53,315 bases of DNA, taken from NCBI GenBank assembly GCA_046045965.1, contig JBJOKS010000030.1, positions 1 through 53,315 of the forward strand, read 5' to 3'. This DNA comes from Cyanobacteriota bacterium (GTDB lineage: Bacteria > Cyanobacteriota > Cyanobacteriia > Cyanobacteriales > Nostocaceae). Position numbers and translations under genes: made by a program. The notes beneath the pieces were generated by a model. It saw only the letters and a list, made by a program, of their open reading frames with translations, had not been told where the DNA came from and searched no databases. This document shows positions 33,006 through 53,315 of this stretch, piece after piece. The first letter of the stretch is position 1. Each line of letters opens with the position of its first letter.

Positions 33006-33051
33006 TGGCTCAGGTCAGAATTGAACTGACGACCCCAGGCTTATGAGTCCC
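33006..33051 (-). tRNA. 3' half of a tRNA(CAT), probably tRNA-Met; displaced att core, not an intact gene
   Basis: Minus strand GGGA-CTCATAA-GCCTG-GGGTC-GTCAG-TTCAATT-CTGAC-CTGAGCC-A gives anticodon loop, T-arm and acceptor 3' strand; no D-arm or 5' acceptor strand upstream. Confidence 0.85.
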
Positions 33052-33100
33052 CTAACAAAGCCAACTATATCAAGAGCTTCAACTTCTGACATCTTATTTT

Positions 33101-33120
33101 ATAGTCAACTAATAGTCAAC
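33101..33120 (+). promoter_or_regulatory. Putative integrase arm-type sites (ATAGTCA x2, 11-bp period)
   Basis: The same doublet occurs at 53268-53285 near the integrase start. Confidence 0.6.
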
Positions 33121-33199
33121 TCCCTTACTCCAAAAGACTTATACACTCCTTTTTGAGATAAACTTGACATCCTAGAATCCCAAGCTTAGGATTGACTCA

Positions 33200-33350
33200 G
33201 GCTATAGTACCCAAGTCAAGTTGAAAACAATGGTTAGTAAACTCTGACTTAACCCGCATCTGTGGTGGAAAGCTTCGCGTTAGTACATCCAGGTGAACTG
33301 AATACCCAACTTACCTGGAGAGAAGTATACAGGTCAACTCTCCTATAGCT
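33200..33350 (+). ncRNA. Putative small structured RNA with two GAA/AGUA loop-E hairpins
   Basis: Closing stem ggctatag/ctatagct; hairpin aagtca-agtt[GAAAACAATGGTTAGTA]aact-c-tgactt; variant gtg[GAA agc ttcgc gtt AGTA]cat. Confidence 0.6.
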
Positions 33351-33484
33351 TTGTGCTGCAATTTGGGTGTTTTAAGGGCTTATAATTTTCTTAATTATAT
33401 TCAAATAAATCTTCTCACAAGAGGCTAGGTGTCTTTCTTGACAACCTAGCTGTGTGTTTGTTATTCCTCTAAAGAAGCTAAATA

Positions 33485-34612
33485 CTAAATAAATAATTTA
33501 ACTAGAGCAAGTATTCCAATTGGGCTCCACGCAAGCTCTCTAGGTGCTTCAGCTATTTTAAGTATTTTATTTAAGATTAAACCTATCACAGCAGTTACAA
33601 AGAACCAACCATTAAATAACATTGTTAGACCCCCTACTGTTAAGAGAATAGTAAGTCTAATTGCAAAGTGAGGTGTGTTGTTGTGGATACTAACATACAT
33701 TTTTACAATATCTTCCCACCATATTAGCAAGATAAAGTTAAAAGCAGATAAGGTAGTTAGTAACCAGAAGCATTCAGCATTACCAAACACTTCCTTTATA
33801 GAAGGTATACTAAAAGCTGCTGCATTACTACTGCGTCCAATAGTTAGTAAGATAGCTAACCCAGTAGCACTAGCAACTGCATCAGCTACAGCATGTCTGC
33901 TAACAGTACAAGAAGCTGATTCATTCTCTTCTTGAAGTAATCTGCATACTGCATTGGTAGGTAGCCCCCATAGGAAACCACTTACTAAGCCAGCCCATAT
34001 TCCTTCTAATCTAAACTCTTTTGGGTCATGATACTCAGCATTCTCAATCTTCTCAGGTTTGTATCTGAACTCATTGATTAAGTTAACTGAGAATAGAGAA
34101 CTAGCTAATACAAATATAGGCTGTTTGATTGGCAGTTCTACAATGAGTAAGGTGAATACTACATAGAATACAAATCCAAGAGTTGCTGCTTTCCAATGTT
34201 TAGAGGCAGAGATTAGTAGCACCCACAATCCTACACCAATACAGACAGAGAGTTGTCTGACTAACTCAATATCTAGGATCTTAGTACCCTGAGTTAAGAT
34301 AGCAAAACCTAAGGCAGCTAACCAGCCAGCTTTTACTAGTTGATAAGAGAACATAGATGAATACATTAACTCATTCTTATTGGTATTTTGAGTAATGTTG
34401 TCATCTAAATCTTCTCTATGTTTAGAATGCAATAAAGATAAGTGTTTTAAAGAGGAGCTTGTAATGTCAACTCCTATTACTAATCCTATTGCAAACCTGG
34501 GTGCAGGTATGAAAGGTGCTAGAAGATAACCTAATCCCATATTGAATCCTGGTATTAGTGAACAAAGGATTCCTAATACTAAGCCAACAATTAAACCAAC
34601 TATTAACTCCAT
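33485..34612 (-). CDS. Multi-pass membrane protein, TctA/DUF112-like permease
   Basis: About 11-12 TM segments; N-terminal GLVLGILCSLIPG and internal repeat AGLVSGFLWGLP resemble the duplicated TctA motif. Confidence 0.6.
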   Translation of the reverse strand: MELIVGLIVGLVLGILCSLIPGFNMGLGYLLAPFIPAPRFAIGLVIGVDITSSSLKHLSLLHSKHREDLDDNITQNTNKNELMYSSMFSYQLVKAGWLAALGFAILTQGTKILDIELVRQLSVCIGVGLWVLLISASKHWKAATLGFVFYVVFTLLIVELPIKQPIFVLASSLFSVNLINEFRYKPEKIENAEYHDPKEFRLEGIWAGLVSGFLWGLPTNAVCRLLQEENESASCTVSRHAVADAVASATGLAILLTIGRSSNAAAFSIPSIKEVFGNAECFWLLTTLSAFNFILLIWWEDIVKMYVSIHNNTPHFAIRLTILLTVGGLTMLFNGWFFVTAVIGLILNKILKIAEAPRELAWSPIGILALVKLFI

Positions 34613-34632
34613 AATAGAAATCCTTTGTTTAT

Positions 34633-35217
34633 TTACTCAACGTCAACTACAACTGGATTACTGAATTCCCCTTCTTGGTAATACCAAGTTTGCTCAATGT
34701 CAGGTTTAACTTTACTAATTACATGTTCAGGAAACTCATAACTAGCTTCACTGGTATGAATAGTAAAGTATTTTTTGCCTCTCATTTTGTCAGTAATATC
34801 TTTGGGTACAGTATGTTTAACTGTTTTGACTTCTGGAACATTGCCAGTTGTGTCAACTACAGTTAAGTCTTCTGTAACTTTGTCAAACAGTAAATTACCA
34901 CTACCTCCAGACTCTACTTCTACTAGAGCTTTAACTCTAGTACCAGGTTTTCTTAACATGAAGTGGTCTCTATGCAAAATGGTAAACTCACATTGGTTAT
35001 TAGAGATAGTGGAATAGTAATTTTTAGCATTCCAGGTGTCTCTTCTAACATCAGTGACTATTCCCTTTACATAACCTCTAGTGTTTGGGGATAGTTCCTC
35101 ACAAGTATTAAGGTTGCCTATGACTACTTTTTTTGAATGTTGTGCTGCTTGGTCTATTGCGAAAAATAAAGGGATAAGCAACCCCACAGAAATTAATAGC
35201 TTTTTTGCTTTAGTCAT
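34633..35217 (-). CDS. Membrane-anchored protein with a probable OB fold
   Basis: Basic N-terminus plus hydrophobic anchor; GYVKGIVTDVR...YSTIS...PGTRVKALVEVE beta pattern. Confidence 0.55.
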   Translation of the reverse strand: MTKAKKLLISVGLLIPLFFAIDQAAQHSKKVVIGNLNTCEELSPNTRGYVKGIVTDVRRDTWNAKNYYSTISNNQCEFTILHRDHFMLRKPGTRVKALVEVESGGSGNLLFDKVTEDLTVVDTTGNVPEVKTVKHTVPKDITDKMRGKKYFTIHTSEASYEFPEHVISKVKPDIEQTWYYQEGEFSNPVVVDVE

Positions 35218-35375
35218 GTATTTGTAAGAACATAAGTCTTTATTTAAGTTTATCTAAATAAATGATACTCTCAGTATTGGTAGATTAAACAATATTAACT
35301 CTAATAAAAACTTATGTGTAATTTTACTAAATCAAAAAAAACTTATAAATTACTTAATCTAATAAATAAACATAC

Positions 35376-37040
35376 CTAACCAGCCCTCAACATTGACAAC
35401 TCAGGAACTTCCTCTACCTGCTCACCCCACAAATCATCACCATAAATATTACTGCTATCTCTCCTCTTCCAAGCATAAGCAGCCAAAGCTAAAGCCATCA
35501 CACAATCAGTAGCTAACCCTTTATCATCCAGTTTATAAAACCTTAGCTCTGTTTTAAGCTGTTTTAACCTATCCTGCTCATCATAAGGAATTATCAGCTT
35601 ACCCTTTTCAACCACCCCAGCAAGGTTAGATAGCATCAAAGTTTTGTGATTATGCTTTTGATTTCTGCCAACCTTCTTGTTAGAGTTAATAGGTGTACAT
35701 AACTCAGCTAAATCAGCAGGTAATTCCTTCTCCAAACTCTCCTTCAAATACTGACCTGCTAATGCAGTAGAGTCATAAAACAGGCTACCTGGGAATTGAT
35801 TTAACCTACGTCTAACCCTCTCTAGCACACCATTCTGGTCAAACAGAGGAGTTTTACTAATCCTTTCAAAAGCAACAATTCTCAACTCCCTATCAATAAA
35901 CTGAAGTGTGATCAGAACTGTACTATCACCATTGGTACTACCAGCCACATCACAACCAGTATAGAACTGTGAACCTGGACCACCTTTAGGTAAGTAGGGG
36001 ATGTCTAAACTAGCACCAGCTTCAGGTAAACAATCTCCTGTAAGTGGGTCATCAAGTGGAAAGAAGCAGCTATGTTTTTCACCTTTTTCAATAGCTAAAT
36101 CTAAATAATTGCCTGCAAAGAAAGTAGAACCATAATTAGCAAATTTACCATAGATTTCTTCCCTGACTTGAGCTTGAGTCATATTCACCATATTTGCCCT
36201 AATTGTTTCTTCAGGGTTACATGGATTATCAAATTGACTGAACTCAGCAATCACTACAGATTTATCCTGTTTAAGCCTTCTATCCTTAAACTCATTCCAC
36301 ATTTTCCTAAAGTAAATAGCACCCTGTCCAGCAGTGTCACCTTCACCTTGAGGAGTAGAAATAAAGTATTTACGTCCACTAACTTCAGTACCCCTAACAT
36401 TTAAAATCTTCATCCTTAAATGTTCTAGGGCATATTCAGAAGCAGCTTCATCTAATGTGGCAATATCTAAATAGAAACCTAAAATAAACCTACCCTTCTG
36501 AACAGTAGCTTGAAACCAGATAATACTATTCAGACAAGTTTCAATATAAGGTTGCTGTCCATCAGCAATGTGTTTAATAAATCCTATACTGTTCAGGAAT
36601 GGACTATCATTAACCAGGTTGATAATTTCATCCTTAACTAACTTGGCTTGCTTTAAACTAGGAGCGCAATTTAAAGATTGAAACCTTTTACTATAGTCAC
36701 CATAGAAAACAGAACTAACAGGTCTTTTTCTATAGAATAGAAACCATAAGTGCATGAGAGCAGTAACAAATGTTTTGCCACTTCTAGAGCCAGCTTTTAG
36801 CACACCTTCCTGAGACTTTACAGCTTGCCTCAACCATTGTCTTTGCTTAGGATGTCCATACACTATATCACCTGTTTCTGGGTGGATTCTTTCAACTTCA
36901 TTGAGGTAATAGTTTACCTTCTCACCAAGGAAATACTTGACAAATAGAACAGGGTCATTAGCACCAGCTATATATTGAATCCTTAATTTCTCTGACTTCA
37001 AAATACCTTCTAAATCAGAAGGAATAGAATGCAAATCCAT
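35376..37040 (-). CDS. terL: Terminase large subunit
   Basis: Walker A AGSRSGKT, Walker B ATLDEAA, motif III ISTP, nuclease GCDVAG...D...DCVMALALA. Confidence 0.92.
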   Translation of the reverse strand: MDLHSIPSDLEGILKSEKLRIQYIAGANDPVLFVKYFLGEKVNYYLNEVERIHPETGDIVYGHPKQRQWLRQAVKSQEGVLKAGSRSGKTFVTALMHLWFLFYRKRPVSSVFYGDYSKRFQSLNCAPSLKQAKLVKDEIINLVNDSPFLNSIGFIKHIADGQQPYIETCLNSIIWFQATVQKGRFILGFYLDIATLDEAASEYALEHLRMKILNVRGTEVSGRKYFISTPQGEGDTAGQGAIYFRKMWNEFKDRRLKQDKSVVIAEFSQFDNPCNPEETIRANMVNMTQAQVREEIYGKFANYGSTFFAGNYLDLAIEKGEKHSCFFPLDDPLTGDCLPEAGASLDIPYLPKGGPGSQFYTGCDVAGSTNGDSTVLITLQFIDRELRIVAFERISKTPLFDQNGVLERVRRRLNQFPGSLFYDSTALAGQYLKESLEKELPADLAELCTPINSNKKVGRNQKHNHKTLMLSNLAGVVEKGKLIIPYDEQDRLKQLKTELRFYKLDDKGLATDCVMALALAAYAWKRRDSSNIYGDDLWGEQVEEVPELSMLRAG

Positions 37041-37783
37041 TAGTCATCATCTCCCAACTCATACTGAATCTCTACATCTGCTGGTTTAAGTTGTAATAAC
37101 TCATCAACTCTAGCTTCAGGATTAGCTGTTAGGTATGCTTTAACTAAATCTTGGATCAACTCTTTGGGTTCTACACTTAACTGTTCATATAAACCTTGAA
37201 GTGTAAGTTCATTTTCATTTTTATCTCTGAGTTCTTTTTTAGTTTTCAAAGTAGCATTAATCTGAGCTTGATGAATCTGGATTATTTTGGAAACATCAGA
37301 GATAGCTTTACTCAAACCATTGATATTATTAGTAATAACTTCTACTTCTCTAACTGATTCTCCATTTAGAGAATTACTCATTTCTACTGCTGCATTGTAC
37401 CTTTCTATTAACTCTGTCTGATGGTCAATAAGCCTACCAATCATAGCATCAGACAACATAATACTGTCTTCTAGTAGACGTTCTTTACTGTAATCAGTAG
37501 CTAATAACTCCTTTCTTTCTTTAGCAGTTAATGATTTAATTGCTCTCATATTTTCTTGTTTAACTAATTTAGAATGTAGACCATGTGTGATTCTTGCTTT
37601 AGCTGCTTTACCTCCATGAGTAGCACAACATTTGTAGCCAAGCATCACATTATTTTTACACTGTGTACCATCTTTTTTAATAACAGGACACCTTTGAGGT
37701 TCAGGTCTTCTACCTGATTTATATCTGTGTTTATAAACTGGACTTTTTTTATAACTTTCACTAGCAATGTGAGGCATTGACAC
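37040..37783 (-). CDS. terS: Terminase small subunit (HGGxSTG-type)
   Basis: RC-x9-C-x9-C-x2-HGG...HGLHSK followed by a helical region; coupled to terL. Confidence 0.75.
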   Translation of the reverse strand: MSMPHIASESYKKSPVYKHRYKSGRRPEPQRCPVIKKDGTQCKNNVMLGYKCCATHGGKAAKARITHGLHSKLVKQENMRAIKSLTAKERKELLATDYSKERLLEDSIMLSDAMIGRLIDHQTELIERYNAAVEMSNSLNGESVREVEVITNNINGLSKAISDVSKIIQIHQAQINATLKTKKELRDKNENELTLQGLYEQLSVEPKELIQDLVKAYLTANPEARVDELLQLKPADVEIQYELGDDD

Positions 37784-37854
37784 TAATAAAAAACTTACAT
37801 ACTAATAGTGTAATTGATAAAATATAGTTATATGTGTACTTTATTTAAAATAGT

Positions 37855-38562
37855 ATGTTAGACAATCAACAAACCAAAGTCACTCCAATCATTGAGACTA
37901 AAAGTTCAGAAGAGCAAATTTATGGTATTTACAACAGGTATTTAAAAACAGGTAATATAAGTTTATTTGAAATTATTATTTTACTTATAGCATTTGGCAG
38001 TTTAGCTTTAACTTGGATTAATCATATCAGGCTAATAAAAACTCCAATTAGCAACGCTATTACTTATCTAACAAATAATCATCTGCATGAGGTTAGGGAA
38101 ATAGAAAATACCTTATCAGAAATGTTAGCAGTAGCTCAATGTCATAGAATAGCAGTAGGCTTATTCCATAATGGTAAATCTGTAGGTAAACATCACTTTA
38201 ATAAAATGAGTGTATTTTATGAAGTAGTAGCTCCTGGTATAACTCCACTAAAAGATGAACTTCAAAATATATCACTTTCTAAAATATATGATGATATAGA
38301 AAGCAGCAGTGGACAAAGTTTTATTAAAGTTTCAGCAGAAGATAAAAGTTTAAAAAGTAGATGTGTAATGCACTTAGACAGTATTGGAGTAAAAGAATTA
38401 TTATCTAGATTATTAGTAGCCCCCAATAAAGGTATCTATGGCATCATCCAACTACACTGGGTTGAAAATACCACAGAGAACATATTAGAAAATCCTGCAA
38501 TGGTAGCTCAATTAAATAAGCTATTTAACAGATTGGTTATTTCAATAGAGGAGAATCAATAA
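37855..38562 (+). CDS. Single-TM protein with GAF-like C-terminal domain (possible T4-T-like holin)
   Basis: One TM at about aa 36-55; RIAVGLFHNG...KMSVFYEVV...QNISLS...GIIQLHW pattern. Confidence 0.5.
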   Translation: MLDNQQTKVTPIIETKSSEEQIYGIYNRYLKTGNISLFEIIILLIAFGSLALTWINHIRLIKTPISNAITYLTNNHLHEVREIENTLSEMLAVAQCHRIAVGLFHNGKSVGKHHFNKMSVFYEVVAPGITPLKDELQNISLSKIYDDIESSSGQSFIKVSAEDKSLKSRCVMHLDSIGVKELLSRLLVAPNKGIYGIIQLHWVENTTENILENPAMVAQLNKLFNRLVISIEENQ

Positions 38563-38564
38563 AT

Positions 38565-39980
38565 TTATGGAGCTATTTCCATTATTACCATATAGTTAGG
38601 AGTAACTGAACTAACAGTTAAACTACCACCACCAGTTTGATTTACTCTAATGCTGTAAAGTCTAGAAGTTGTTGAATCAGCAGTTGTGTAATAAACAACA
38701 GTTACAGGCTCAGGATAAGCATCACTTCTTCTACCAATATTATTTTGATATTGCGTTTTAATTGTACTATCTTGATATACAGCTAAACTATAGTAATGAG
38801 TATTATTACTGGTAGATTTAGTTACACCTCCTATAAATGCTGTTATGTAAATAGTTGAAGTAGCACTTAAAGGAGTTATGTTAGCTTGAATAACAGAAGA
38901 CCAACTTCCATTAGTATTTACAATCCAACCAGGAACAGATGCAGTTACTACTTGTATTACTTTACCTCCTCCACCAGCAGAAGGAGTTTGTGGTTCCCAT
39001 CTGGTATTAGCAGTGTTATAAGTTAATACTTGACCATTTGTAGGGGTTACATTATGTACAGTTCTACTTTGAAGTTGGTTAGCATTCCATTGAGCAGTAG
39101 TGTTTCCTACCTGGGCAGCAGTAACACTATGTGGATTACTTGTATTACCAGTATGTGAAGTTAAATCAGTAGTAGAGGGTACACTAAGATTTGTTCTAGC
39201 AGCAGCAGCAGTAGAAGCTCCTGTACCCCCTTTTCCAATAGAAAGAGTATTTCCTATATTGTTTAAATTTAGACTTGATTCAATTACATCTAAATCAATT
39301 TCAGAATTAGCAGCGTCATCTACAATACTCATTCTGATGCTGGGAACTAACTTTTTAAACTCTAAATCAGTTCCTACTTTTTGTTTAAATACACCTATTC
39401 CTATACCAGTAAGTCCAACATTACTTGCTGTGTTAACTTCACCAGTAGAAGGTAATGTTTGATTAGTCCATTCTCCAGTAGAATTATTATAAATTAATGC
39501 TTGACCATTAGCAGGTGAAGTAATAGTTACATCAGTTAAACTATCTAAATTAGAAGCACCAGCAGAAACAGTATCAAATTCTAAATTAGTGGTAGCAGCA
39601 TTATATTTTAAAACCTTACCATCACCTATAGCAGAATCATCTACATTTATTCCTCTAATTTTATCTGCATTCCATTGAGCAATATTATTACCTACCTGAC
39701 TAGCAGTAACATTGTGAGGATTAGATGTATTTGCAATGTGATTACTAATAGTAGAATCATCTATAGTTGTGCCTTGAGCTATTAAATCCCAATCTAATGC
39801 AGTTGCACTAGGTTCTTCACTTGTAGTTTTGTTAGCTCTGTAACTAGACCCTTCATGAAATACACCTTCATTGCGCCTATAAACACTAGCATTATCCCAA
39901 TCACCTAACCAAATAACAGAGATACCATTAACAGTAGGAATAGGACTAGAAGGAGTGCTTGGATTAATTTCTATAGCCAT
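38565..39980 (-). CDS. Virion fibre / receptor-binding protein
   Basis: Duplicated H..NTSNPH.VTA.QVG...AQWNA blocks, GQ(A/V)L.YN repeats, KGGTGASTAAAARTNL and a C-terminal GKVIQVV domain. Confidence 0.8.
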   Translation of the reverse strand: MAIEINPSTPSSPIPTVNGISVIWLGDWDNASVYRRNEGVFHEGSSYRANKTTSEEPSATALDWDLIAQGTTIDDSTISNHIANTSNPHNVTASQVGNNIAQWNADKIRGINVDDSAIGDGKVLKYNAATTNLEFDTVSAGASNLDSLTDVTITSPANGQALIYNNSTGEWTNQTLPSTGEVNTASNVGLTGIGIGVFKQKVGTDLEFKKLVPSIRMSIVDDAANSEIDLDVIESSLNLNNIGNTLSIGKGGTGASTAAAARTNLSVPSTTDLTSHTGNTSNPHSVTAAQVGNTTAQWNANQLQSRTVHNVTPTNGQVLTYNTANTRWEPQTPSAGGGGKVIQVVTASVPGWIVNTNGSWSSVIQANITPLSATSTIYITAFIGGVTKSTSNNTHYYSLAVYQDSTIKTQYQNNIGRRSDAYPEPVTVVYYTTADSTTSRLYSIRVNQTGGGSLTVSSVTPNYMVIMEIAP

Positions 39981-39981: not shown

Positions 39982-40989
39982 TTAATACCCCTTTAAAGTT
40001 CCTCTGATAAAGATTTGTGTGTCAGCTTGAGTACCTGTAACTTCTATTTTGATAATATTTGTATTCACCAATGAATAACTTTTCACAATAGTATTATCAG
40101 TAGTCAAAGTACCAACATCTTGCCAAGCAATACCTACTAATTCTTTGAGAATAAAACTGACATTAGCTGTAGCAACAACCTCAATATCTAATCTCTTATA
40201 ATTTTTAACATCAATGAATCCACCTATGTAAGTTTGTACATTTACAATAGTTGGAATACCAAAGGAATCATTATCTAAATCTAACTGGAATAAAGGTACA
40301 GTGTCTTCCAATTCAGTTTGATGATCAACTAGATAAGAAATAGTAAATTGTCCTGCTGAAGTCCATGCACCATTAGTAGCTGACTTTTCAATTAATGCAG
40401 CTTTATCTTCTAATTGATATTGTCTTTCAAGTTGCTTTAACTCAATAGCAGTTAATCTTTTCTGATCACCAATAGTTAAATCTTTTTGTTCTTCCCTAGC
40501 AATTAAAGCTAACTTATCTTCCAAACTGTCCTTACAACAAGTTTTAGAAGCTCCATTAGCAATCAAATCTAAAACATCTGATTGAGTCCAGAATTGAGCA
40601 GCAGTTAATGTACCTAACTTGTGAATAGTAATATAAGCTTTCAGATGTAGAAAATAATCTGTTTGTGCTTTTTCTATTAATTCCCTGTCTCTAGTAATGG
40701 AAGTACCAGAAGCAGAATCATATTTAACTACAGGGTCACTAACAAAGTAATATTTAACCCCAAATCCTATTAAGTTCCAAGCATCAATAAAGTCTGCCTC
40801 TAATGAAGTAATAGCTCCACTAGACACAGTAGAAGTTATATCAGTTAAACCTTTAGCTTGAAGATCAGATATTACAGATAGTGTAAGTAAATTAGCTCTA
40901 TTACTATCAACAATGCTAGTGGTAGTGTCATTTAAAGCAGGGCGTAAATAGTTATTAAAAAAGTCATTCCAACTAATTGATACTGGCAT
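39982..40989 (-). CDS. Putative virion (head-completion/adaptor-like) protein
   Basis: Position after the capsid gene; helical N-terminal half and beta-rich C-terminus; no firm motif. Confidence 0.45.
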   Translation of the reverse strand: MPVSISWNDFFNNYLRPALNDTTTSIVDSNRANLLTLSVISDLQAKGLTDITSTVSSGAITSLEADFIDAWNLIGFGVKYYFVSDPVVKYDSASGTSITRDRELIEKAQTDYFLHLKAYITIHKLGTLTAAQFWTQSDVLDLIANGASKTCCKDSLEDKLALIAREEQKDLTIGDQKRLTAIELKQLERQYQLEDKAALIEKSATNGAWTSAGQFTISYLVDHQTELEDTVPLFQLDLDNDSFGIPTIVNVQTYIGGFIDVKNYKRLDIEVVATANVSFILKELVGIAWQDVGTLTTDNTIVKSYSLVNTNIIKIEVTGTQADTQIFIRGTLKGY

Positions 40990-41007: not shown

Positions 41008-41679
41008 TTAAACTAATCTGTCAGGAAATCTTTTTACATAATTGATAATAGTATTCTTGGGTAGACTTTGAATGCTACTACTAGAGGTGTATTGTTGATA
41101 AGTCAAACTAGAAGCAGTGACTTTAACATTTGCATTATTATTAAAAGCTGGATTAACTGTAAAAGCTTCTGACAAGTTTTGTAAAAATAATCCTGACTCA
41201 TCATATTGATAAAAATCAGCAAGCCCTCCATAAGTTTTAGAAGTACCTATATGAAAGAAGAAACTTTCTTTAAAAGGTTGCTGTCTAGGTCTACCCCATG
41301 AACCAATAGGATAAGTATTAGGATACCAATATTCAGGGTCTATGTGGGTTATTAATGTTTCATTATCAGATAACTCTAACAAGCTAGTTGCAGGTGAACT
41401 TATATTAATACCTGAACCAAATCTGTTAATTATATTAGCAGTGCTGTTGATATATCCTGGAATGAAATAAGCAGCATAAACAGTAGGACTACCATCTAAA
41501 ACACAAGTGGCATTATCTACATTTATAGTTACTCCCCCAGCAGTTTGTAATTCATCTCTGTTAGTTAAAAATGATAACTCTGGAACATAAACTAATCCAG
41601 AAAACTGATTGATAATTGATGCTAATAACAAATCTTTTTCTAGTGATTTGTACCTTTCTAAATCTGCAAACATAATCAT
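41008..41679 (-). CDS. Hypothetical structural-module protein
   Basis: 223-aa ORF co-oriented between the capsid and adaptor-like genes. Confidence 0.55.
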   Translation of the reverse strand: MIMFADLERYKSLEKDLLLASIINQFSGLVYVPELSFLTNRDELQTAGGVTINVDNATCVLDGSPTVYAAYFIPGYINSTANIINRFGSGINISSPATSLLELSDNETLITHIDPEYWYPNTYPIGSWGRPRQQPFKESFFFHIGTSKTYGGLADFYQYDESGLFLQNLSEAFTVNPAFNNNANVKVTASSLTYQQYTSSSSIQSLPKNTIINYVKRFPDRLV

Positions 41680-43232: not shown

Positions 43233-43597
43233 GGTTTAACTTTGCGTTCTTCTTCAGCAGAAGTTTTACTAACAGATACTCCAGGCTTTGTAACCATAGA
43301 TTTACTATTATTAGTAGAGTTTTTAGTTAAAGCAGCTTGCAATGCAGTCTGTATTTTAGGAACTAAATTCTCTTTTAACTCTGCTTCTAAAGCTTGCTGT
43401 TTGGCTAACAAATCTGAAACCACTTCTTCTTGGGTAGAACCAGTTGGTTTAATACCTAACAGTTTAGCCATCCTTTGAAAATCAGGTTTAGTTTGAGCTA
43501 ATGCAGCCTCATAATCAATCTCAGGACTGGGAGGTGTAATAGCCTCTAAACCTAAATCTAATTCTTGGTTTTCTATTACTTGTGTTTGCTCATCCAT
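43217..43597 (-). CDS. Putative scaffolding protein
   Basis: Acidic N-terminus, coiled coil and basic C-terminus; lies between portal and capsid genes. Confidence 0.55.
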   Translation of the reverse strand: MDEQTQVIENQELDLGLEAITPPSPEIDYEAALAQTKPDFQRMAKLLGIKPTGSTQEEVVSDLLAKQQALEAELKENLVPKIQTALQAALTKNSTNNSKSMVTKPGVSVSKTSAEEERKVKPWRGY

Positions 43598-44952: not shown

Positions 44953-45169
44953 TTAAAAATAAGAATTTACTTATATTTATTATATACATTAATTTGGCTG
45001 ATGAAAAGTAGGCTGAATGATAAGAAGTATAGATAGTTGGTTTAATATGTATGTTCTGTACCAGTAGGCTGGGGCAGGTGACTTATGGCGGGGGGTGTAA
45101 TAAAGTTGTCTATAATATTCAAGGTGGCAGACAGCTACCCTTTTTAATTGAATCATGCCCTTAACATTC

Positions 45170-46123
45170 AGTGGTCTTAGGATTGTGTGCGGAACTTATT
45201 CTGCCTACTTAGTAGGATGTGTGCCAGTTCCTATTCTGCCTGAGACCAAAGGTGTTTAGATGAAACCATTGAGACTTCTACATGAAAGACTCTTAGGAGG
45301 CTGACTAGTGTGGAGGTGTAGATAGTTGACTTAGTGAAAACTTCTTAGGAAGCTGATTAGCTTTGTTAACTGTCTGCAACATAGGTTGATGGGATTAAGT
45401 TCTCGCCCTGTGTTCTACAATGCGGATTAGTCTGTAGCCTATAGAAGGAATTGTAACAGTCCCAAAAGACCTCTATGGTTAGGGAAATGTTTAAGCCTTC
45501 TATACTCTCTGCAACTGTAACTCCCTCAGAAGACCCTAGTGGTTAGAGGTTGTAGTTTAAGGTAGAGAGCTGAATGGTCTGTTGCTGAAAGCTTTAGTTT
45601 AGCTAATATCTTACAGTGAAAACAATGGTTAGTAACTGTGAGGTACATGACTGCGGTAAGTTGGGAAAACAATGGTTAGTACCTAATTGCCAGAAGCAGC
45701 ATGAGCTAAACTAATTGGGCTAGTAAGCAGCAGTTGGGTGTATACTCCCTAAGTTTATAGTTAGTCACTCTTTATTCTGTTCTTCTTTAAGAGACTGTTT
45801 AGCTTCTCACCTGTAGTTATCTAAGGTCACTCACCTAGTGCTGAACGCTTCAGTGGTAAGACCTCAGTTAGCCCCTCACTAGAAGAGATATCTAGGGAAC
45901 AGCTAGGTAAACTTAGAGTACAGCTCTAGGTAACTCACTACTGAGCCTACTAAATAGATGCTTCAGTAGTCAGCCTGTAGTGTCTAGATATACAGTCTAC
46001 TTAATCTTCACTCACTAAGAGACAGTGGGAACAGTAAACAGCACATACAGGAATTAACAATCTTTAGTTTGCAAACAATCTTTATTAACACATCTCTTCA
46101 ATAGCTGTTAATAGAGTTTTTTT
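45170..46123 (+). ncRNA. Putative large (~0.9-1 kb) modular structured RNA
   Basis: ORF-free; consecutive stems with G-U pairs on the + strand, duplicated covarying modules and three loop-E motifs; TATAAT at 45111-45116 and a hairpin plus U7 at 46080-46123. Confidence 0.75.
46080..46123 (+). terminator. Putative intrinsic terminator closing the structured region
   Basis: ctttattaaca/tgttaatagag stem followed by T7. Confidence 0.5.
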
Positions 46124-46171
46124 AACAATAGACAGGCACATCAATAATCAGTAAATAAGGAAATCACAAAT

Positions 46172-46913: not shown

Positions 46914-47186
46914 ATGGAAATTCAATTTATAGGTGGTTTAAGGGTTTCTCATAAAGAACTAAGTAAATTGTTTAATGTTAAGCCCTCTCAACTTAAGAAA
47001 ACTATAGAACAGTATCATAAACACTTTGAAGACTATGGTTTCCTTTATGAATCAGCAGGTGAATATTACTTGAGCTATCCTCAATGTGAGGTTGCTGTTC
47101 TCTTTACTGTATCAAGTAACCTTGAGGCTAGAAGTTTATTCAGTAAACTAAACAAAGAGTTTGCTAACTTTAAGAAATCTTATTGA
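46914..47186 (+). CDS. Rha-like phage regulatory protein
   Basis: VSHKELSKLFNVKPSQLKKTIEQY...FEDYG...YYLSYPQC pattern. Confidence 0.55.
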   Translation: MEIQFIGGLRVSHKELSKLFNVKPSQLKKTIEQYHKHFEDYGFLYESAGEYYLSYPQCEVAVLFTVSSNLEARSLFSKLNKEFANFKKSY

Positions 47187-47701: not shown

Positions 47702-47854
47702 ATGCGACTAGATAGAATTACTTCAATCAGACTATATGCAGGTCATGGTGAACAACTACAAAAGATTGCTGATTTGAAGGGGCTAGATAAAGCAGACATC
47801 ATCAGAACAGCAGTCAAAACATATTTAGACAATTACAATAGTCAATCCCTATAA
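47702..47854 (+). CDS. Ribbon-helix-helix (CopG/Arc-like) repressor, 50 aa (not in the ORF track)
   Basis: MRLDRITSIRLYAGHGEQLQKIADLKGLDKADIIRTAVKTYLDNYNSQSL*: beta strand TSIRL followed by two helices. Confidence 0.8.
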   Translation: MRLDRITSIRLYAGHGEQLQKIADLKGLDKADIIRTAVKTYLDNYNSQSL

Positions 47855-47929
47855 ATAAATAGTCTCCTTATTGAGGGAGACTTAATTAAATTACCTTTTA
47901 TAAATTAACCAATATATATATATTCTAAT

Positions 47930-48736
47930 ATGACTAACTTAAATATTTCTATTCAATCTCAGATTAAAGCTACAGTTGAGGCAGGTGGACAATTTCCAGT
48001 AGACTTTGAATTAGCTTGGCAATGGTTAGAATATTCTTCTAAGGGTAATGCTAAAAGAACTTTGACAGCTAACTTTGTAGAAGGGATAGATTATTCCTCA
48101 CTTATCACTATTGAGAAGCGAGAAATTGGGGCTACCAGAGTTGAAGAAATCTATTTAACAGCAGACTGTTTCAAACAACTTGCTATGCTTTCAGGTACAC
48201 CTAAAGGAAAGGAAGTTAGATTATACTTTATTGAATGTGAGAGACAATTAAAAGCTATTTACTCTGGTGATTATTTAGCTACATTGAAAGCTTTAGTGGC
48301 AGCACAAGAAGAGAAGCAGGCATTATTATTGAAGGCTGCCCAAGCTGAAGAGAAAGTAATTGAGTTAGCTCCTAAAGCTGAAAGTTGGGAACGACTTTGT
48401 GGCACTAATGGACTAATGACTATTGGTGAGGTTGCTAAGAATTTGGCTATCCCTGGTTTGGGTCCAAATAAGTTATTTCAATTGCTAAGAGATAAAGGAT
48501 ACATATATTATGATTATCAAGGCTGTAATGTTCCTAAATCTACTCTTGTAGAGAAAAAATATATGAAAAGTGTAGAGAAATATGACTTTAAAAGAGATAA
48601 AAAATATTCAGTATGTGCAGTTACTTATAAAGGTTATGAGTTTATAGTCAGATTGTTAAAAAGACTTGGATATATTTCTGATACTCCTGTTCCAAATGCA
48701 GGCGTGTTACCTATACCTTATCAAGTAGCAGCCTAA
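47930..48736 (+). CDS. Phage antirepressor (AntA/B-like N-terminus plus KilAC/ANT C-terminus)
   Basis: FPVDFELAWQWL...FVEGIDY...KGKEVRLYFIECE; ELAPKAE...IGEVAKNL...GPNKLFQLLRDKGYI. Confidence 0.88.
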   Translation: MTNLNISIQSQIKATVEAGGQFPVDFELAWQWLEYSSKGNAKRTLTANFVEGIDYSSLITIEKREIGATRVEEIYLTADCFKQLAMLSGTPKGKEVRLYFIECERQLKAIYSGDYLATLKALVAAQEEKQALLLKAAQAEEKVIELAPKAESWERLCGTNGLMTIGEVAKNLAIPGLGPNKLFQLLRDKGYIYYDYQGCNVPKSTLVEKKYMKSVEKYDFKRDKKYSVCAVTYKGYEFIVRLLKRLGYISDTPVPNAGVLPIPYQVAA

Positions 48737-48742
48737 ACTAAT

Positions 48743-48780
48743 AATGGAAGAAGGTCTGTCTCCTAAAACCCTCTTCCATT
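48743..48780. terminator. Hairpin after the antirepressor gene
   Basis: aatggaaga...tcttccatt stem. Confidence 0.5.
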
Positions 48781-48859
48781 TACTACAAAAATAACATATA
48801 ATACTCACCTGAATAGTAATATTATACTACAAAAATACTTATAATACAATTGAATAAAT

Positions 48860-50911
48860 ATGCAAAGAATTAAACTAAATCAACAATACCTCAACTTTAA
48901 GAATCCTAATACTAGAATTTTAGTAATTGAATCAGGTAAAGGAACGGGCAAAACTAGATGGATGGAAGATAACCTAGCTGAAATTCCCGCTTTATTTTTA
49001 AGTCATAGAATAGCATTAACAAAAGATTTAGCTAACCGCACTGGGTCTGCTCATTACTTAGATAACTCTGCTCATCAGTCAAAAAGGTTAGTAATATGTG
49101 TTAACTCTTTAATGAGTTTACTTCATTCTGATACTCACAAAGGCGCAACTATAGTAATTGATGAAGCTACCCAAGTATTAAGACATCTAATAGGGGAAAC
49201 TTGTTCAGCTAACAGACAAGAAATACTGAATACTTTAGGTAACAAAGTATATAACTGCTCACAGTTAATATTGCTCGATGCTGACATGAATCAGGAGACA
49301 CTAGACTACTTTGTTAAATTGTTCAATTACAAGGATGTGCAAGTAACTCCAGAAGACATTACTTGGGTGACTAATAGTTATCAGCCTAAAAAGAGAGTAT
49401 TTAAAGAGTTTCCCACTTCAGAAAGCTTGCAGTTTCATCTTATTAATGACTTAAAAGCTGGCTTAAACTTATATATTGCTGCTGATACTCAAGCTAGAGT
49501 GGAAACAATTAACTCCCTGATTGATTCTGCAAAGATAGAACTTAAAGGAAAGCTAACTGTACATGGTTCTAACTCAGCCCAAGAGAAGCAAGTAGACTTT
49601 ATTGCTAACGTCAATGAGTTACAGAAAAACTACCAAGTTGTTATAGCTTCTCCAAGTCTGTTTACAGGCGTTGATATTAACCAACCTCACTTTGATAAAG
49701 TATACCTGTTTGCTGATGGGGCTTCTGCTACTGCCACTGACCTATTACAAGCTTCAGCAAGAGTAAGAACTGTATCAGAAGTTAACTTCTGGATCACTTC
49801 AAAGAAAAATAATGAGCTTACCTCTTGGGAAGAAATCTTAAGTAACAAGGAGAGAGTTGCCTTTGGTACAGGTTGGATGAATAGTGTTGACTCTGAGTTA
49901 AGAGCAGCAAGAGGAGGAGATGTTTGGGCTTGGGACTTTGATATAGCTACTGGAACTTCAAAGGTTAGAGACAGTGTGTATATGACTATGTTCTGCCAGC
50001 TACAAGCTCTACAGAATAAATCTCTTAATGATTTACATAGTTCCTTTGTTGAGGCTGCTGCTAGAGAAGGTAAAGTTGTAACACATAAACCTACTGAATC
50101 AGAGATTAAGCAATTAGAGATAGTTAAAGAAGCTACAAAGATTGTTAGAAGACAAAATAAGCAAGCTAAACATCAAGCAATCATAAATGCTCCTGACCTT
50201 ACTCCAGAGAATTGGTTCTTATTAGATACTGATCCTGATGTACTGTCTGTACAAGAAGCTAACTCTCTTAAGAAACATAAGTTGCTGAAGTTAATTGGAG
50301 GCTTAACTGAGTATTTACCTGAAGTAGTGAAGAATGAATCTAAGTGGTTTAAAGCTATTTACTATCAAGGGTTACTGAATAGAGACTTAGAAGATTTGGC
50401 TCAACAAGATGAACTAGATGTTAGAACTAAAGCTCCTAGTGACCGTAAGTACAGAGTTAAGACAGTAAACTTGATTAGAGAGTTCTTAAAGAGAGTTAAC
50501 TATGAAGGTTCATTACTAAGAGGTGAAGAGTTATCAGCTTTCTATTCTGAGTCTGAGGTTAATGCTCCCCGCGCTAACCATAGTTGGTTTACCACTCATG
50601 CTATTGAGTTTAAAGAACTTCTGAACTTATCTGTACCCAAGAATGTAGAAGATAAACCATTTCAGTTTATTCAATCAGTATTAAGTGTACTAGGACTGTC
50701 TACTACAGATAAGCAAGTGACTGTGCGTACAGGGGATGTGATGGTTGCTATGGGTTCTCTAGGGGTTTATCCAACTAAAGATGCAGATAAGAAAATCAGA
50801 ATCAGAAAGTATTATATTGACTCTTCTTCAGTTGATATAATGAACTCTATTTTGGCAGCTAGAGAAGCTAAATACAGTAAACAAGAGGAGTTAGTAGAGT
50901 TACCATTTTAG
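48860..50911 (+). CDS. Origin-binding SF2 helicase / replication initiator (CyRepA-like helicase domain)
   Basis: SGKGTGKT, LSHRIAL, ICVNSL, VIDEATQV, LLDAD, IASPSLFTGVDI and QASARVR motifs. Confidence 0.85.
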   Translation: MQRIKLNQQYLNFKNPNTRILVIESGKGTGKTRWMEDNLAEIPALFLSHRIALTKDLANRTGSAHYLDNSAHQSKRLVICVNSLMSLLHSDTHKGATIVIDEATQVLRHLIGETCSANRQEILNTLGNKVYNCSQLILLDADMNQETLDYFVKLFNYKDVQVTPEDITWVTNSYQPKKRVFKEFPTSESLQFHLINDLKAGLNLYIAADTQARVETINSLIDSAKIELKGKLTVHGSNSAQEKQVDFIANVNELQKNYQVVIASPSLFTGVDINQPHFDKVYLFADGASATATDLLQASARVRTVSEVNFWITSKKNNELTSWEEILSNKERVAFGTGWMNSVDSELRAARGGDVWAWDFDIATGTSKVRDSVYMTMFCQLQALQNKSLNDLHSSFVEAAAREGKVVTHKPTESEIKQLEIVKEATKIVRRQNKQAKHQAIINAPDLTPENWFLLDTDPDVLSVQEANSLKKHKLLKLIGGLTEYLPEVVKNESKWFKAIYYQGLLNRDLEDLAQQDELDVRTKAPSDRKYRVKTVNLIREFLKRVNYEGSLLRGEELSAFYSESEVNAPRANHSWFTTHAIEFKELLNLSVPKNVEDKPFQFIQSVLSVLGLSTTDKQVTVRTGDVMVAMGSLGVYPTKDADKKIRIRKYYIDSSSVDIMNSILAAREAKYSKQEELVELPF

Positions 50912-50935
50912 TTGGGGTAAGGGCAGCTAACCCAA

Positions 50936-51407
50936 CCCCCTTTCTAGCAGCCTGCACAACCCTTTCTCTTTATATAAAATAATAATTTAGGTTGTGCAGC
51001 ATTACTAAGTATAGAGTTAATTTAGAGTATAATTTATTAGTAAGTATTACTTAGTTAAATGTAAAGTAAATATAGAGGTAATCTAAGTTTAGAGTAAATC
51101 TTCTTATCTCTATACTGCAAGAAGGTTTTTTATAAAAACAGATTTCCTTTTGAGATAGAAAAAATACTAACTTTAAGCTACCTCTTTCAGTTATAGACTG
51201 AAACTTATTAGTTACACAGTCCCCCTTCTAGCAGACTGCACAACCTAAATTATTTATTTATATAAAGAGAAAGGGTTGTGCAGCATTAGTTAATATTTAG
51301 TTAATTAATTACTAATGGTAACAGTAAACCAAGTTTAGCTAATCTCAAGTTATAGGTAATCTAAGTTTAGGGTAAATCTTCTTACCTTTATACTGCAAGA
51401 ATGTTTT
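50936..51407. repeat. Duplicated origin-like unit with an inverted hairpin loop (putative ori)
   Basis: CTGCACAACC-N28-GGTTGTGCAG at 50952-50999 and 51236-51283; second shared block aggtaatctaagtttag...tatactgcaagaa at 51076-51123 and 51354-51401. Confidence 0.85.
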
Positions 51408-51502
51408 ACGGGCTGTAGTTTAGCCAAGTGGCTACTATAAATTACACACAAAATTAGTGACCAACATCACACAAACCTTTAAAACCATGCTTTAGTGTTG
51501 GT

Positions 51503-51781
51503 TTGTTAATTAGCCAGGTGTATATTATGACTGATAAACAAAATCAAGAAACACTTAAATTAGACCCAGTGAAAGAAGAAGTGGGTACTAAATTACAACA
51601 AGTTCTCCAGTTGCTAATAGAAGTACAGGCTACTCGTATAGATGGGGATCTACCTTATAGTGCTAATAAGGCAATAGCTAATATAGTGAGGAATCCTCCA
51701 GAGTATACTGCTATGGTGGATCACTTATTAGACAAGACTGGAGAACTTATAGATTATATAAACAATGGAGAAATAAACTAA
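51503..51781 (+). CDS. Hypothetical protein (likely start MTDKQ at 51527)
   Basis: Helical ORF; aggtg upstream of ATG 51527. Confidence 0.55.
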   Translation: MLISQVYIMTDKQNQETLKLDPVKEEVGTKLQQVLQLLIEVQATRIDGDLPYSANKAIANIVRNPPEYTAMVDHLLDKTGELIDYINNGEIN

Positions 51782-51810
51782 CTAATATCTCTAACTTTTT
51801 AATATCAAAA

Positions 51811-51852
51811 AACCTGATGAGTCAACTTATAAAAATAGCTGCTCATCAGGTT
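51811..51852. terminator. Hairpin between convergent small genes
   Basis: aacctgatgag...ctcatcaggtt perfect 11-bp stem. Confidence 0.6.
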
Positions 51853-51859
51853 ACTTCAA

Positions 51860-52090
51860 TTAAGTATTCTTATTTACCCTATACGTATAAAGCCTTCTTT
51901 GCAGGGCATCTAACCTGTTGTAGACGCTAGTGAAAGTATCATGAAGCATACTAGAGGCAGTGCTTAATGCGGTGTCTGGATCATCTTTGAGGTGAGTGTC
52001 ACATATCTTTATAACTCCCACAATCTGCTGTAACTCCTCTATGCAAGTCTCTAGGTCTTCAGCCATTTCTATATAAATTGGGTTTTCCAT
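51860..52090 (-). CDS. Hypothetical protein downstream of the integrase
   Basis: 76-aa ORF with RBS gagga, co-oriented with int. Confidence 0.6.
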   Translation of the reverse strand: MENPIYIEMAEDLETCIEELQQIVGVIKICDTHLKDDPDTALSTASSMLHDTFTSVYNRLDALQRRLYTYRVNKNT

Positions 52091-52110
52091 TTGACTATTC
52101 CTCTTGACTT

Positions 52111-53235
52111 TTAGAATATTTCTGGAACTTCAAGTTGTTTGATTACTCCTGAATAATGCTTGTATATTACTTCAGGAGAATTACCCACCATATCAGCAAC
52201 TTGTTTCACTGAAATACCAGATTCTAGACATAAAGTGATAAAGGTGTGACGGCAACTGTATTGAGGCAGATAATATCTAATCAACGTATCATTGACTAAA
52301 TTAGTTAATACTGGTTTCCATACTCTATTGAGAAAATTATGAGTATTTAGCTCTCTACCATTGCGGTTATAGAAAAGTAATTTCTCAGCTTCTTTATACT
52401 CAATATCATTCAAAAGTTCTCTCAATTGGTTATTGATAGGAAACAATCTAGTTTGATGAGTTTTTGTGTCTTTCCTTATCCTGACATCAGAAGGTACAGC
52501 TTCAGCAAAAGTGATATGTGTTGAGCTAATATGTTTCCATTTCAAGGCTACAGCTTCTTCAGGTCTGCATCCAGTGAGGAATAAAAGTCTGACATAGTTG
52601 GTGTAGTAAGAGTGAGGTAAGGGGGAATATTTAGGACAATACTTGTTACCAGCAAAAGCATCAATGATAATGGCTATCTCCTGTTTATTGAAAGTAAGAA
52701 TAGTATTATCTTTCCTTTTGGTTTTAATGCTTTTAGCTAAGTCTTTGAAGGGATTAGTTTCTAGCAACCCAGATGTGATAGCCCAATTACAGCAAGCATT
52801 AATTTGTTTAATAGTACGCTTGGCTGTTTCAGCAGAATAATTACTAAGTAAATGATTCCTGATTAGCACTGCATCCTTAATGTCGCTAGTAGGTAGTGCT
52901 TTAATTCTTTTCTCTATTAGTGAGTAATCTCTGATAACAGTAGATTGTTCCACTTGACTGCTCTTAAACTGAACATACTCACACCATAAGTCCAGTAAAG
53001 TGTATGTTTTTTCCTTCTTGGCAGATTCATAGTGAGGCTTATATTTACTTAAAGTAGGGTCAAAATAACCAGCTAGGATATCTAACTCTATCTGCCTTGC
53101 TTTCATCTCAGCAAGCACTTTATTCTCAGCAGTGTCAGCTAGATTCAGAGATAAGTATTTCTGATTACCACCAAATAAAGCTCTAGGAAATCTTAATCTA
53201 AGTTTACCTCTAAAGACCTCAATACCAACTTTCAT
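52111..53235 (-). CDS. int: Tyrosine integrase with N-terminal arm-binding domain
   Basis: GKLRLRF...KYLSLNL arm domain; catalytic TGCRPEE, KT, YSCRHTF and VGNS...HY motifs. Confidence 0.95.
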   Translation of the reverse strand: MKVGIEVFRGKLRLRFPRALFGGNQKYLSLNLADTAENKVLAEMKARQIELDILAGYFDPTLSKYKPHYESAKKEKTYTLLDLWCEYVQFKSSQVEQSTVIRDYSLIEKRIKALPTSDIKDAVLIRNHLLSNYSAETAKRTIKQINACCNWAITSGLLETNPFKDLAKSIKTKRKDNTILTFNKQEIAIIIDAFAGNKYCPKYSPLPHSYYTNYVRLLFLTGCRPEEAVALKWKHISSTHITFAEAVPSDVRIRKDTKTHQTRLFPINNQLRELLNDIEYKEAEKLLFYNRNGRELNTHNFLNRVWKPVLTNLVNDTLIRYYLPQYSCRHTFITLCLESGISVKQVADMVGNSPEVIYKHYSGVIKQLEVPEIF

Positions 53236-53245
53236 GGTAATTTCC

Positions 53246-53285
53246 TGACTATTCTAGACTTAGCTTGATAGTCATTTGATAGTCA
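53246..53285. promoter_or_regulatory. Putative integrase arm-type sites near the right att
   Basis: ATAGTCA at 53268 and 53279 (11-bp period) plus an inverted TGACTAT at 53246. Confidence 0.6.
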
Positions 53286-53315
53286 AAAGGGTGTGAAAAC
53301 AGATATTCAGCCCTC

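Follow-up and report, generated by a model that had tools for sequence, protein, structure and literature searches.

Among the described systems closest to the locus analysed here, the capsid-forming PICIs (cf-PICIs; PMC10085698 and bioRxiv 10.1101/2025.02.11.637232) are integrated elements of 10–18 kb with their own genes for capsid and portal, for both terminase subunits, small (TerS) and large (TerL), and for a head-tail adaptor and a connector; they have no tail shaft or lysin, and their neck genes vary faster than their head genes. They also carry a prohead protease and an HNH nuclease, an AlpA/MerR/Stl regulator and a primase. According to the preprint, adaptor and connector occur without a tail and are the two proteins that set tail specificity. 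The Streptomyces satellites MulchRoom (PMC10690885) and Ando (PMC13587820), of 13–15 kb, encode a tyrosine integrase, terminase, portal, scaffold and capsid, have no tail, lysis or replication genes and no reported fibre, and carry tails of the length of those of their virulent helper. MiniFlayer (PMC10690885) has a linear genome of 17.4 kb with terminal repeats; it encodes head proteins, an adaptor and a fibre but neither tail shaft nor integrase, and binds the neck of its helper's virion. Helicobacter phage KHP30 (NC_019928, PDB 7wmp) is a small, integrase-bearing phage of 26 kb with a small nozzle, a primase, a helicase and an annotated holin. In Nostocales, the compact phage-like remnants of Anabaena sp. 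90 (11–13 kb, one near a truncated tRNA; PMC3542288) reportedly have neither terminase nor capsid genes, the opposite of the gene set found here. Little has been described of intact temperate viral elements in heterocyst-forming cyanobacteria, and the main text of a large satellite survey (PMC10085698) makes no mention of cyanobacteria.

The window analysed is one entire contig of 53,315 nt from a filamentous member of the Nostocaceae. It ends in a mobile element of about 20.36 kb integrated at a tRNA gene (Table 1), which belongs to a conserved family of elements in bloom cyanobacteria that encodes a head, a predicted neck and a fibre and has no recognisable tail shaft or cell-wall enzyme. 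The last 127 nt of the contig are identical to a second contig, C2, and stop 53 nt short of the intact tRNA-Met there, which forms the other end of the element; no room is therefore left at that end for tail genes. In genome G693, of the same genus, the site is empty: an intact tRNA-Met runs directly into the host genes that lie to the left of the element here (93% identity over 1347 nt). The G+C content of the element is 34.3% against 38.1% for the genome, and it holds no HIP1 octamer where about 10 would be expected at the genome rate. The att copy, the 53-nt gap and the empty site bear out the original prediction of a compact integrated element of about 20 kb with intact open reading frames, all of which are present and open; the tail genes that might have lain between the window and the tRNA are not there.

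Table 1. Features of the integrated element, in window coordinates
Feature	Position	Strand	Evidence
att core, 46-nt copy of tRNA-Met(cat) 3′ end	33006..33051	-	100% match to C2:227505-227550
375-aa multi-pass membrane protein, accessory	33485..34612	-	8 hydrophobic segments
194-aa protein, N-terminal hydrophobic helix, accessory	34633..35217	-	hydrophobic segment
TerL	35376..37040	-	phrog_2 E 8e-20
Likely TerS	37040..37783	-	HGGxSTG motif E 4e-4, under cut-off; partly position
235-aa single-helix membrane protein, putative holin at most	37855..38562	+	phrog_30125 (unknown function) E 4e-9
Fibre, mosaic and variable	38565..39980	-	PHROG tail and tail-fibre families, best E 8e-9
Predicted head-tail adaptor (residues 1-130), long helix (156-200), XepA/YomS-like jelly roll (231-335)	39982..40989	-	AlphaFold2 pLDDT 73.7
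Predicted head-closure (stopper) ring protein, low confidence	41008..41679	-	model pLDDT 52.2
Major capsid protein (MCP)	41718..42791	-	phrog_3990 E 1e-25
Cement/decoration protein	42819..43184	-	PF09956 E 1e-4, 23.1 bits vs cut-off 24; partly position
Likely scaffold	43217..43597	-	position only, between portal and cement in 12/12 regions
Likely portal	43600..44952	-	phrog_533 E 5e-4, partial (58 residues); size and position
Non-coding region (~1 kb) dividing divergent late and early arms	45157..46171	.	18-nt repeat, two copies (45617, 45664)
146-aa protein, one hydrophobic helix	46172..46612	+	homologs in 4/12 regions
90-aa protein without named family	46914..47186	+	Pfam/PHROG profile searches
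Ribbon-helix-helix (RHH) regulator	47702..47854	+	phrog_876 E 6e-6; PF01402 E 0.0075
Ant/KilAC antirepressor-family protein	47930..48736	+	PF03374 E 2e-19; phrog_63 E 5e-36
CyRepA1-family replication protein	48860..50911	+	NF042913 293 bits, cut-off 200
Repeat pair 3′ of rep (~190 nt, 73% alike, inverted 48-nt core), possible origin	50937..51407	.	function proposed
92-aa ORF	51503..51781	+	open reading frame
76-aa ORF adjoining integrase	51860..52090	-	homologs in 4/12 regions
Tyrosine integrase (tRNA-Met type)	52111..53235	-	phrog_1 E 1e-42

The head and packaging module stands as it had been proposed, firmly for MCP and TerL, less so for portal, cement and TerS, and by gene order for the scaffold, which matched no family in profile searches. 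TerL forms an isolated lineage; neither it nor the portal had a tblastn match among 50,697 phage records, and the MCP is 21–26% identical to annotated actinophage MCPs. TerS adjoins TerL in 10 of 12 relatives' regions at 71–84% identity, and a stretch of 30 residues in it also matches an HNH PHROG (E 0.003). The cement protein, 121 aa when counted from the ATG common to the relatives, is 73–90% identical in all 12 regions. Five pairwise comparisons gave dN/dS values of 0.07–0.29 for TerL (0.07–0.13), TerS, portal (0.12–0.19), scaffold, cement and MCP; by this measure, purifying selection acts on the head and packaging genes.

When the two proteins between capsid and fibre underwent the fold check suggested in the original prediction, their models pointed to an adaptor and, weakly, to a stopper-like ring, and to no propeller nozzle. 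All 13 matches of the adaptor N-domain within the top 50 were phage portal-tail chains, from phages that we take to be short-tailed; the best, KHP30, had Z 10.1 (rmsd 3.4, 109 residues aligned). The C-domain superposes on XepA with Z 11.9 (rmsd 1.9, 97 aligned), and in a Foldseek comparison of the adaptor model with viral models, unnamed jelly-roll proteins made up most of the matches. The protein is predicted to be a head-tail adaptor, an assignment fairly firm for a predicted structure, extended by a coiled coil and an XepA-like jelly roll. For the ring protein, the best viral-library match was 'head completion, neck' at E 4e-3, with none at 1e-3. Its best PDB match, a T4 neck entry, reached Z 5.3, below what unrelated models often reach, and neck or connector appeared in 7 of the 10 top titles. 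Tail knobs and tubes contain the same barrel (C1 gp12, Z 4.4; phi29 gp9, Z 3.8), but stoppers ranked first and knobs lower, and necks of long-tailed phages led both libraries. This low-confidence model hints at a stopper ring of the long-tailed type rather than a propeller nozzle. A language-model search (Atlas) linked the ring protein to crAss muzzle clusters only at a score (0.79) below threshold.

The ring gene is only 46–61% identical between copies, against 69–90% for head genes, and its dN/dS (0.37–0.56) is similar to that of the fibre (0.43–0.66). A second neck type is dispersed over the capsid tree, requiring at least three changes; by these sequence comparisons, the stopper-like gene is fast-evolving and swapped among copies. 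Half of the relatives add a protein of 732–763 aa (the 740-aa protein) and one of 260–295 aa (the 270-aa protein), neither with a known fold. The former shares only a 17-residue motif with the ring protein and gave only sub-threshold leads in Atlas, and the latter has no profile similarity to the ring protein. Sequence searches of the PDB with neck, 740-aa, 270-aa and MCP alignments returned nothing meaningful. The single fibre that had been predicted is present, with partial matches to fibres of cultured phages; some relatives have two to four fibre-like genes.

In the early arm, the integrase, antirepressor and CyRepA-like helicase of the original prediction were firmly recovered, the RHH regulator by a weaker match, while two names did not hold. 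The 'Rha-like' gene matched no named family. The 'holin-like' gene lies on the strand opposite to the late operon, encodes one weak hydrophobic helix and matches unnamed PHROGs only; one of 12 regions has a homolog, and seven relatives have a different single-helix protein of 102–140 aa in the slot. CyRepA1 is likewise common to one of 12 regions, three unrelated families filling its place elsewhere. The integrase is 77–81% identical to those of five tRNA-Met relatives against 24–31% to those at Ala, Pro and Val. The two accessory genes beside the att core had no homolog in the 12 regions, and the larger matched no family in profile searches. The 18-nt repeat recurs at 33222, and a related repeat lies upstream of the portal gene in 4 of 14 relatives' regions.

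Searches of the 20 element proteins against PHROGs and Pfam (E<=0.1) agreed with the absences first noted, in that nothing matched a tape measure, a tube or sheath, a baseplate, a polymerase, an endolysin or CI. Profile searches likewise found no prohead protease or HNH nuclease. The largest ORF is 683 aa.

The same architecture recurs in relatives. The capsid gene was found at 71–88% identity in 13 of 388 other Nostocaceae genomes (about 3% of sampled species genomes), and family proteins are source-assigned to Dolichospermum, Aphanizomenon, Anabaena, Cuspidothrix, Nodularia, Nostoc and Gloeotrichia. Nine of 14 fetched regions have both att repeats, 16.8–21.7 kb apart (19.9–21.7 kb in the seven without large deletions), with the same late-gene order and largest ORFs of 552–763 aa. 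None of the nine carries the full tail module that would have marked our copy as a deletion remnant. A representative set of 28 variable proteins yielded no match to a tube, sheath, baseplate, tape measure or lysin, save one weak exception, a 94-aa protein against the appended part of a major-tail profile (E 0.0015). Members carry an integrase of their own and occupy four tRNA types (Met, Ala, Pro and Val), and copies have swapped modules for integration, replication and the neck. Genome G545 holds two copies at different tRNAs and with different integrases, whose late genes match at 99.9% identity over 11.3 kb, a sign of recent mobility. The family was not found among cultured phages, and no tailed relative with the same head genes emerged from IMG/VR and phage-record searches. 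Scans of IMG/VR with alignments of the adaptor, of TerL and of MCP, and with a sister TerL, gave no locus, a single-MCP scan gave two contigs (22% identity), and a metagenome scan one contig of 2.1 kb.

How does such an element spread? Because no tail shaft or lysin is recognisable, it likely borrows tail and lysis, and we consider that the family likely spreads by tails taken from other viruses. That it is a capsid-forming satellite served by an incoming phage is our preferred reading, though in our judgement an even call. Once de-repressed, it would excise and replicate with its own replication protein, and its own motor would package about 20 kb of DNA into a small head, which the predicted adaptor and stopper rings would cap. 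The stopper would then offer a docking face to the helper's tail terminator, and a co-infecting cyanophage would supply a ready-made long tail and lysis of the host, fibres and adaptor jelly-roll domains perhaps serving as accessory adsorption aids. The helper would usually be an incoming virulent phage, since resident tailed prophages are rarely found: a tape measure matched in one of 14 carrier genomes and a second strong TerL in two, with none in carrier G000. Short-tailed phages such as T7 and P22 need large ejection proteins. The conserved late genes of this subtype are all head, neck, fibre or packaging genes, and so leave no candidate for such proteins, nor did any match a lysin.

The original prediction had put forward, without choosing, a cyanobacterial capsid-forming satellite, a minimal podovirus-like phage and a tail-less particle with a different entry route. 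The adaptor and stopper-like folds and the lack of an ejection-protein candidate favour the satellite, which would work like cf-PICIs, MulchRoom or Ando, but not its filing as a cf-PICI. In common with cf-PICIs are its own capsid, portal, TerS and TerL (portal and TerS by weak, partly positional matches), the predicted adaptor, and the lack of a complete tail module and of lytic-gene matches, the putative holin being a possible exception. Unlike them, the family measures 20–22 kb; where cf-PICIs have protease and HNH it has scaffold and cement, and in place of AlpA/MerR/Stl and primase it carries RHH and Ant with CyRepA1 or another replicase. TerL is unrelated, the host is a cyanobacterium, the adaptor is extended, and the element has its own fibre, a tail profile of the kind that the cf-PICI model of SatelliteFinder forbids by its description (PMC10085698). 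The virulent helper presumed here would be a trait in common with MulchRoom and Ando, from which the family differs by its larger size, replication protein and fibres; from the elements of PMC12822802 it differs by the lack of a tape measure. Several observations weigh against a satellite: the adaptor matches all come from phages that we take to be short-tailed, the fibre is its own, the 740-aa and 270-aa proteins of half the relatives could form a short tail, rapid evolution of the ring would suit binding to a host receptor as well as to a helper tail, the ring model is poor, and no resident helper was found in most carriers.

Some of these observations also suit a minimal, autonomous temperate phage with a tail made up entirely of portal, adaptor, one small ring and fibres, which we regard as unlikely but deserving real weight. 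An adaptor with a fibre is what a podo phage would have, a structure entry for the KHP30 tail contains a 265-aa nozzle, and the element has its own replication protein. Its DNA might cross the envelope by way of the XepA-like domains or of the host's machinery for DNA uptake, and a holin together with host wall enzymes would allow exit; a single-helix membrane gene does lie between the fibre and TerS genes, both here and in eight relatives. PMC6834076 describes XepA as toxic to bacterial cells, with membrane action proposed, but also the domain common to XepA and YomS as insufficient for toxicity. There is no endolysin match, nothing here compares with the 551- and 1633-aa ORFs beside the KHP30 adaptor, which may act in ejection, and profile comparisons found no similarity to KHP30 gp25 (ring protein included) or gp12, or between nozzles or adaptors. 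The ring matches, moreover, are led by long-tailed phage necks. More doubtful still is a self-sufficient temperate virus whose particle is head, neck and fibres, without tail shaft, ejection proteins or endolysin; its 20 kb of DNA would have to enter by a membrane-active jelly-roll crown on the adaptor or by host DNA uptake.

We likewise see a rather slim chance that a sealed head grips a helper virion by its own fibre and enters with it, as MiniFlayer's gene set and neck binding might suggest and as a fast-evolving, mosaic fibre would allow. Attachment in MiniFlayer is read as an adaptation to the lack of an integrase (PMC10690885), whereas this element integrates and encodes a replication protein; attachment alone also leaves DNA delivery unexplained. 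A host-kept, GTA-like head module, or heads docking on a host contractile injection system, is very unlikely. T4 gp19-type tube genes, possibly of such a system, occur in 10 of 14 carriers and a T4 neck entry leads the ring matches, but we rate docking low because no tube genes were found in the other four (G000, 92% complete; G230, 99%; G451; G536). The patchy distribution, four tRNA types, own integrase and lack of HIP1 sites argue for a mobile element rather than a domesticated locus. A decaying prophage that lost its tail and lysis genes is scarcely credible: copies are damaged in G585 (both terminases lost), G625 (early arm lost), G543 and G653 (split portal) and G344 (transposase insertions), but size and layout persist at 71–88% capsid identity under purifying selection, near-identical duplicates sit at different sites, and no tailed relative was found.

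Members of the family are present in named cultured strains, which makes both the satellite and the helper-free reading directly testable. If no helper is needed, a head-tail virus would have an unknown way of entry into the cell. If tails are indeed borrowed, the family would represent an independent origin of that strategy, with a bearing on gene flow and phage control in cyanobacterial blooms.

The element is delimited by a duplication of the 3'-terminal 46 nt of tRNA-Met(cat), the intact copy of which lies on another contig (C2) of the same Nostocales genome (92% complete). The window comprises contig C30 in full, and the final 127 nt of this contig are identical to C2 sequence, at a point 53 nt from the intact tRNA. 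In consequence, the element measures ~20.36 kb and no genes are hidden past the window on the integrase side, which excludes the tail genes that might have lain there. The empty site was found in a genome of the same genus (G693). The element has a low G+C content and zero copies of the octamer motif known as HIP1.

All the ORFs listed in the original prediction are there with open reading frames. Profile scans firmly supported integrase, TerL, major head protein, Ant and fibre, and placed the CyRepA-like helicase, a replication protein, above the curated CyRepA1 cut-off. Portal, cement, TerS and RHH received profile support, albeit weak, and the scaffold label follows from gene position alone. 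The Rha-like label found no confirmation and neither did the holin-like one: this gene lies on the strand opposite to the late operon, encodes one weak hydrophobic helix and is present in 1 of 12 relatives' regions, its slot being occupied by a different single-helix protein in 7 others. As anticipated, families of tape measures, tubes, sheaths, baseplates, polymerases, lysins and CI repressors found no match among the element's 20 proteins.

Coordinates of the features discussed (window positions unless a contig or region is named)
Feature	Location	Observation
Mrr-type restriction endonuclease and TOPRIM-like genes	31754-32850	Just outside att; also at the empty site of G693
Duplicated tRNA end	33006-33051
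18-nt repeat	33192-33239, 45617-45681	Copies at 33222, 45617 and 45664
Holin candidate	37855-38562
Predicted adaptor gene	39982-40989
Predicted ring gene	41008-41679
Rha-like gene	46914-47186
Early-arm variant	C2:227477-231137
1040-aa ORF, another contig of the source genome	C29:4394-7516	30% identical to element Rep over 333 residues; among host genes, no head genes nearby
Large protein, second neck type	L031:16154-18418, L039:15898-18102	With homologs, starts with the 17-residue motif that terminates the first-type ring protein
Two small virion-type proteins after the fibre	L028:4929-6142 and L029 (both G545 copies)	Repeated 90-residue domain
Fibre of the G585 copy	L034:6429-8204	Weak lectin and GDSL matches

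An integrase-to-rep variant, 93–94% identical but with different small genes, lies behind the same intact tRNA-Met on C2; its rep is truncated at the contig end by sequence common to several contig ends. Contigs from the likely source sample contain both early-arm variants over a single shared late module. From these sequences we interpret the variants as alleles that coexist in the population, although they might instead belong to a tandem pair of elements. In contigs of two sequencing runs of one sample, with loose contig ends, sequence left of the first 18-nt repeat is fused directly to the second. Such a join would delete all 12.4 kb of the late module, and the remaining derivative, with only integrase and rep, might be a satellite of the satellite.

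What do the two genes that the original prediction left unnamed encode? In the adaptor gene product (pLDDT 73.7), residues 1–130 gave an adaptor fold, since all 13 covering rows in the top 50 structural matches were phage portal-tail chains, presumably all from short-tailed phages. The best was KHP30 (Z 10.1, rmsd 3.4, 109 aligned) and the titles name Sf6 gp7 and P22 gp4; helical Z values below 13 can be commonplace, as the search tool warns, and it is the uniform identity of the matches, not Z, that carries weight in this predicted assignment. Between this domain and residues 231–335, which match XepA (Z 11.9) and YomS (Z 11.8), come a helix of 45 residues and a linker modelled with low confidence. 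The second protein was poorly modelled (pLDDT 52). In the viral library it best matched proteins named for head completion, neck or closure (top E 4e-3, none at 1e-3), and its best PDB matches are necks of T4, Chi, Pam3, Milano, Douge, 812 and phiCD508 (Z 4.4–5.3), with tail knobs and tubes scoring below them for this low-confidence model. These matches point tentatively to a stopper ring. Among relatives the ring gene shows 46–61% identity and a dN/dS of 0.37–0.56.

A second type of neck occurs in 7 of 14 regions. It comprises a large protein of 732–763 aa (578 aa in G344), a 189-aa ring homolog (hhalign 95.5% to the ring protein; absent in G344), an extra protein of 260–295 aa and an adaptor enlarged by an insert of 110 aa. 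The large protein has no family match and 11 homologs, all named ones from Nostocales. On the capsid tree, the two neck types require at least 3 changes.

The capsid gene, near full length and 71–88% identical, was found at 15 places in 13 of 388 other Nostocaceae genomes, plus one weak partial match; an order-wide sample of 400 genomes contained it in 3, all of the same family. Fourteen of the 15 places were examined. Both att repeats (44–55 nt) bound nine of these regions, 16.8–21.7 kb apart, while four are interrupted by contig ends and one has no detected second att. Insertion sites comprise tRNA-Met, -Ala, -Pro and -Val, integrases are of two types and the replication slot holds four unrelated protein families. 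Whichever late genes a region has, they run in the order portal, scaffold, cement, capsid, neck genes, fibre(s), TerS, TerL. The longest ORF in the nine att-bounded copies is 552–763 aa, and scans revealed no tail module: 28 representatives, a subset of the variable proteins, matched fibre, spike, TPR and unnamed families, the sole tail-like exception being one weak match to the appended part of a major-tail profile. Head and packaging genes have dN/dS values of 0.07–0.29 against five relatives; visible damage affects five copies (G585, G625, G543, G653 and G344). G545 has a pair of copies with 99.9% identity across 11.3 kb, yet these occupy different tRNAs and have different integrases in front of them. 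Runs from two other studies hold most of the element (29/30 and 25/30 bins). We found no published description of this family, though individual copies may be recorded as incomplete prophages in paywalled articles or in supplements to genome papers.

How would such an element complete its cycle? It would probably excise through its own integrase, replicate via CyRepA1 and package itself into a cemented head closed by the predicted adaptor and stopper; a long tail and lysis functions, both borrowed, would then complete the particle cycle. This is the simplest completion, because first-type elements have nothing left for crossing the Gram-negative envelope or breaking the wall, and, judged from anatomy, we give it an even chance. 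An autonomous stub-tailed phage would agree with the podophage-like adaptor, the element's own fibres and the precedent of the 265-aa KHP30 nozzle, but would require a new kind of entry route; we consider it unlikely. Hitch-hiking on a helper virion appears rather improbable, and a domesticated head, or one docking on an injection system, more so. That the element is a remnant is very improbable.

As far as its genes tell, borrowing of tail and lysis would make the element work like cf-PICIs (PMC10085698 and bioRxiv 10.1101/2025.02.11.637232) and like MulchRoom (PMC10690885) and Ando (PMC13587820). It departs from four listed cf-PICI features, namely size, protease plus HNH, regulator plus primase, and absence of any tail-profile gene (PMC10085698), and for this reason is not classed as a cf-PICI. 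Using one Pfam family per part, a narrow test, we found a tape-measure match in 1 of 14 carrier genomes and a second strong TerL in 2; TerL matches in G344, G543, G545 and G230 were limited to the elements' own, and the source genome gave no tube or sheath match. With so few tailed-phage parts in carriers, a helper, if needed, likely comes from outside the carrier genome.

Among 1.84 billion representatives, the TerL has three full-length sister clusters (464–540 bits) and, beyond them, no full-length match above 108 bits; by sequence, the lineage is isolated. Altogether, there is a Nostocales family of head-and-neck elements that is real, bounded, selected and mobile. The longest contigs of the TerL sisters (P0084, P0085 and P0086) span 5–21 kb (maximum 20.8 kb), which may be a sign of related small elements in other hosts.
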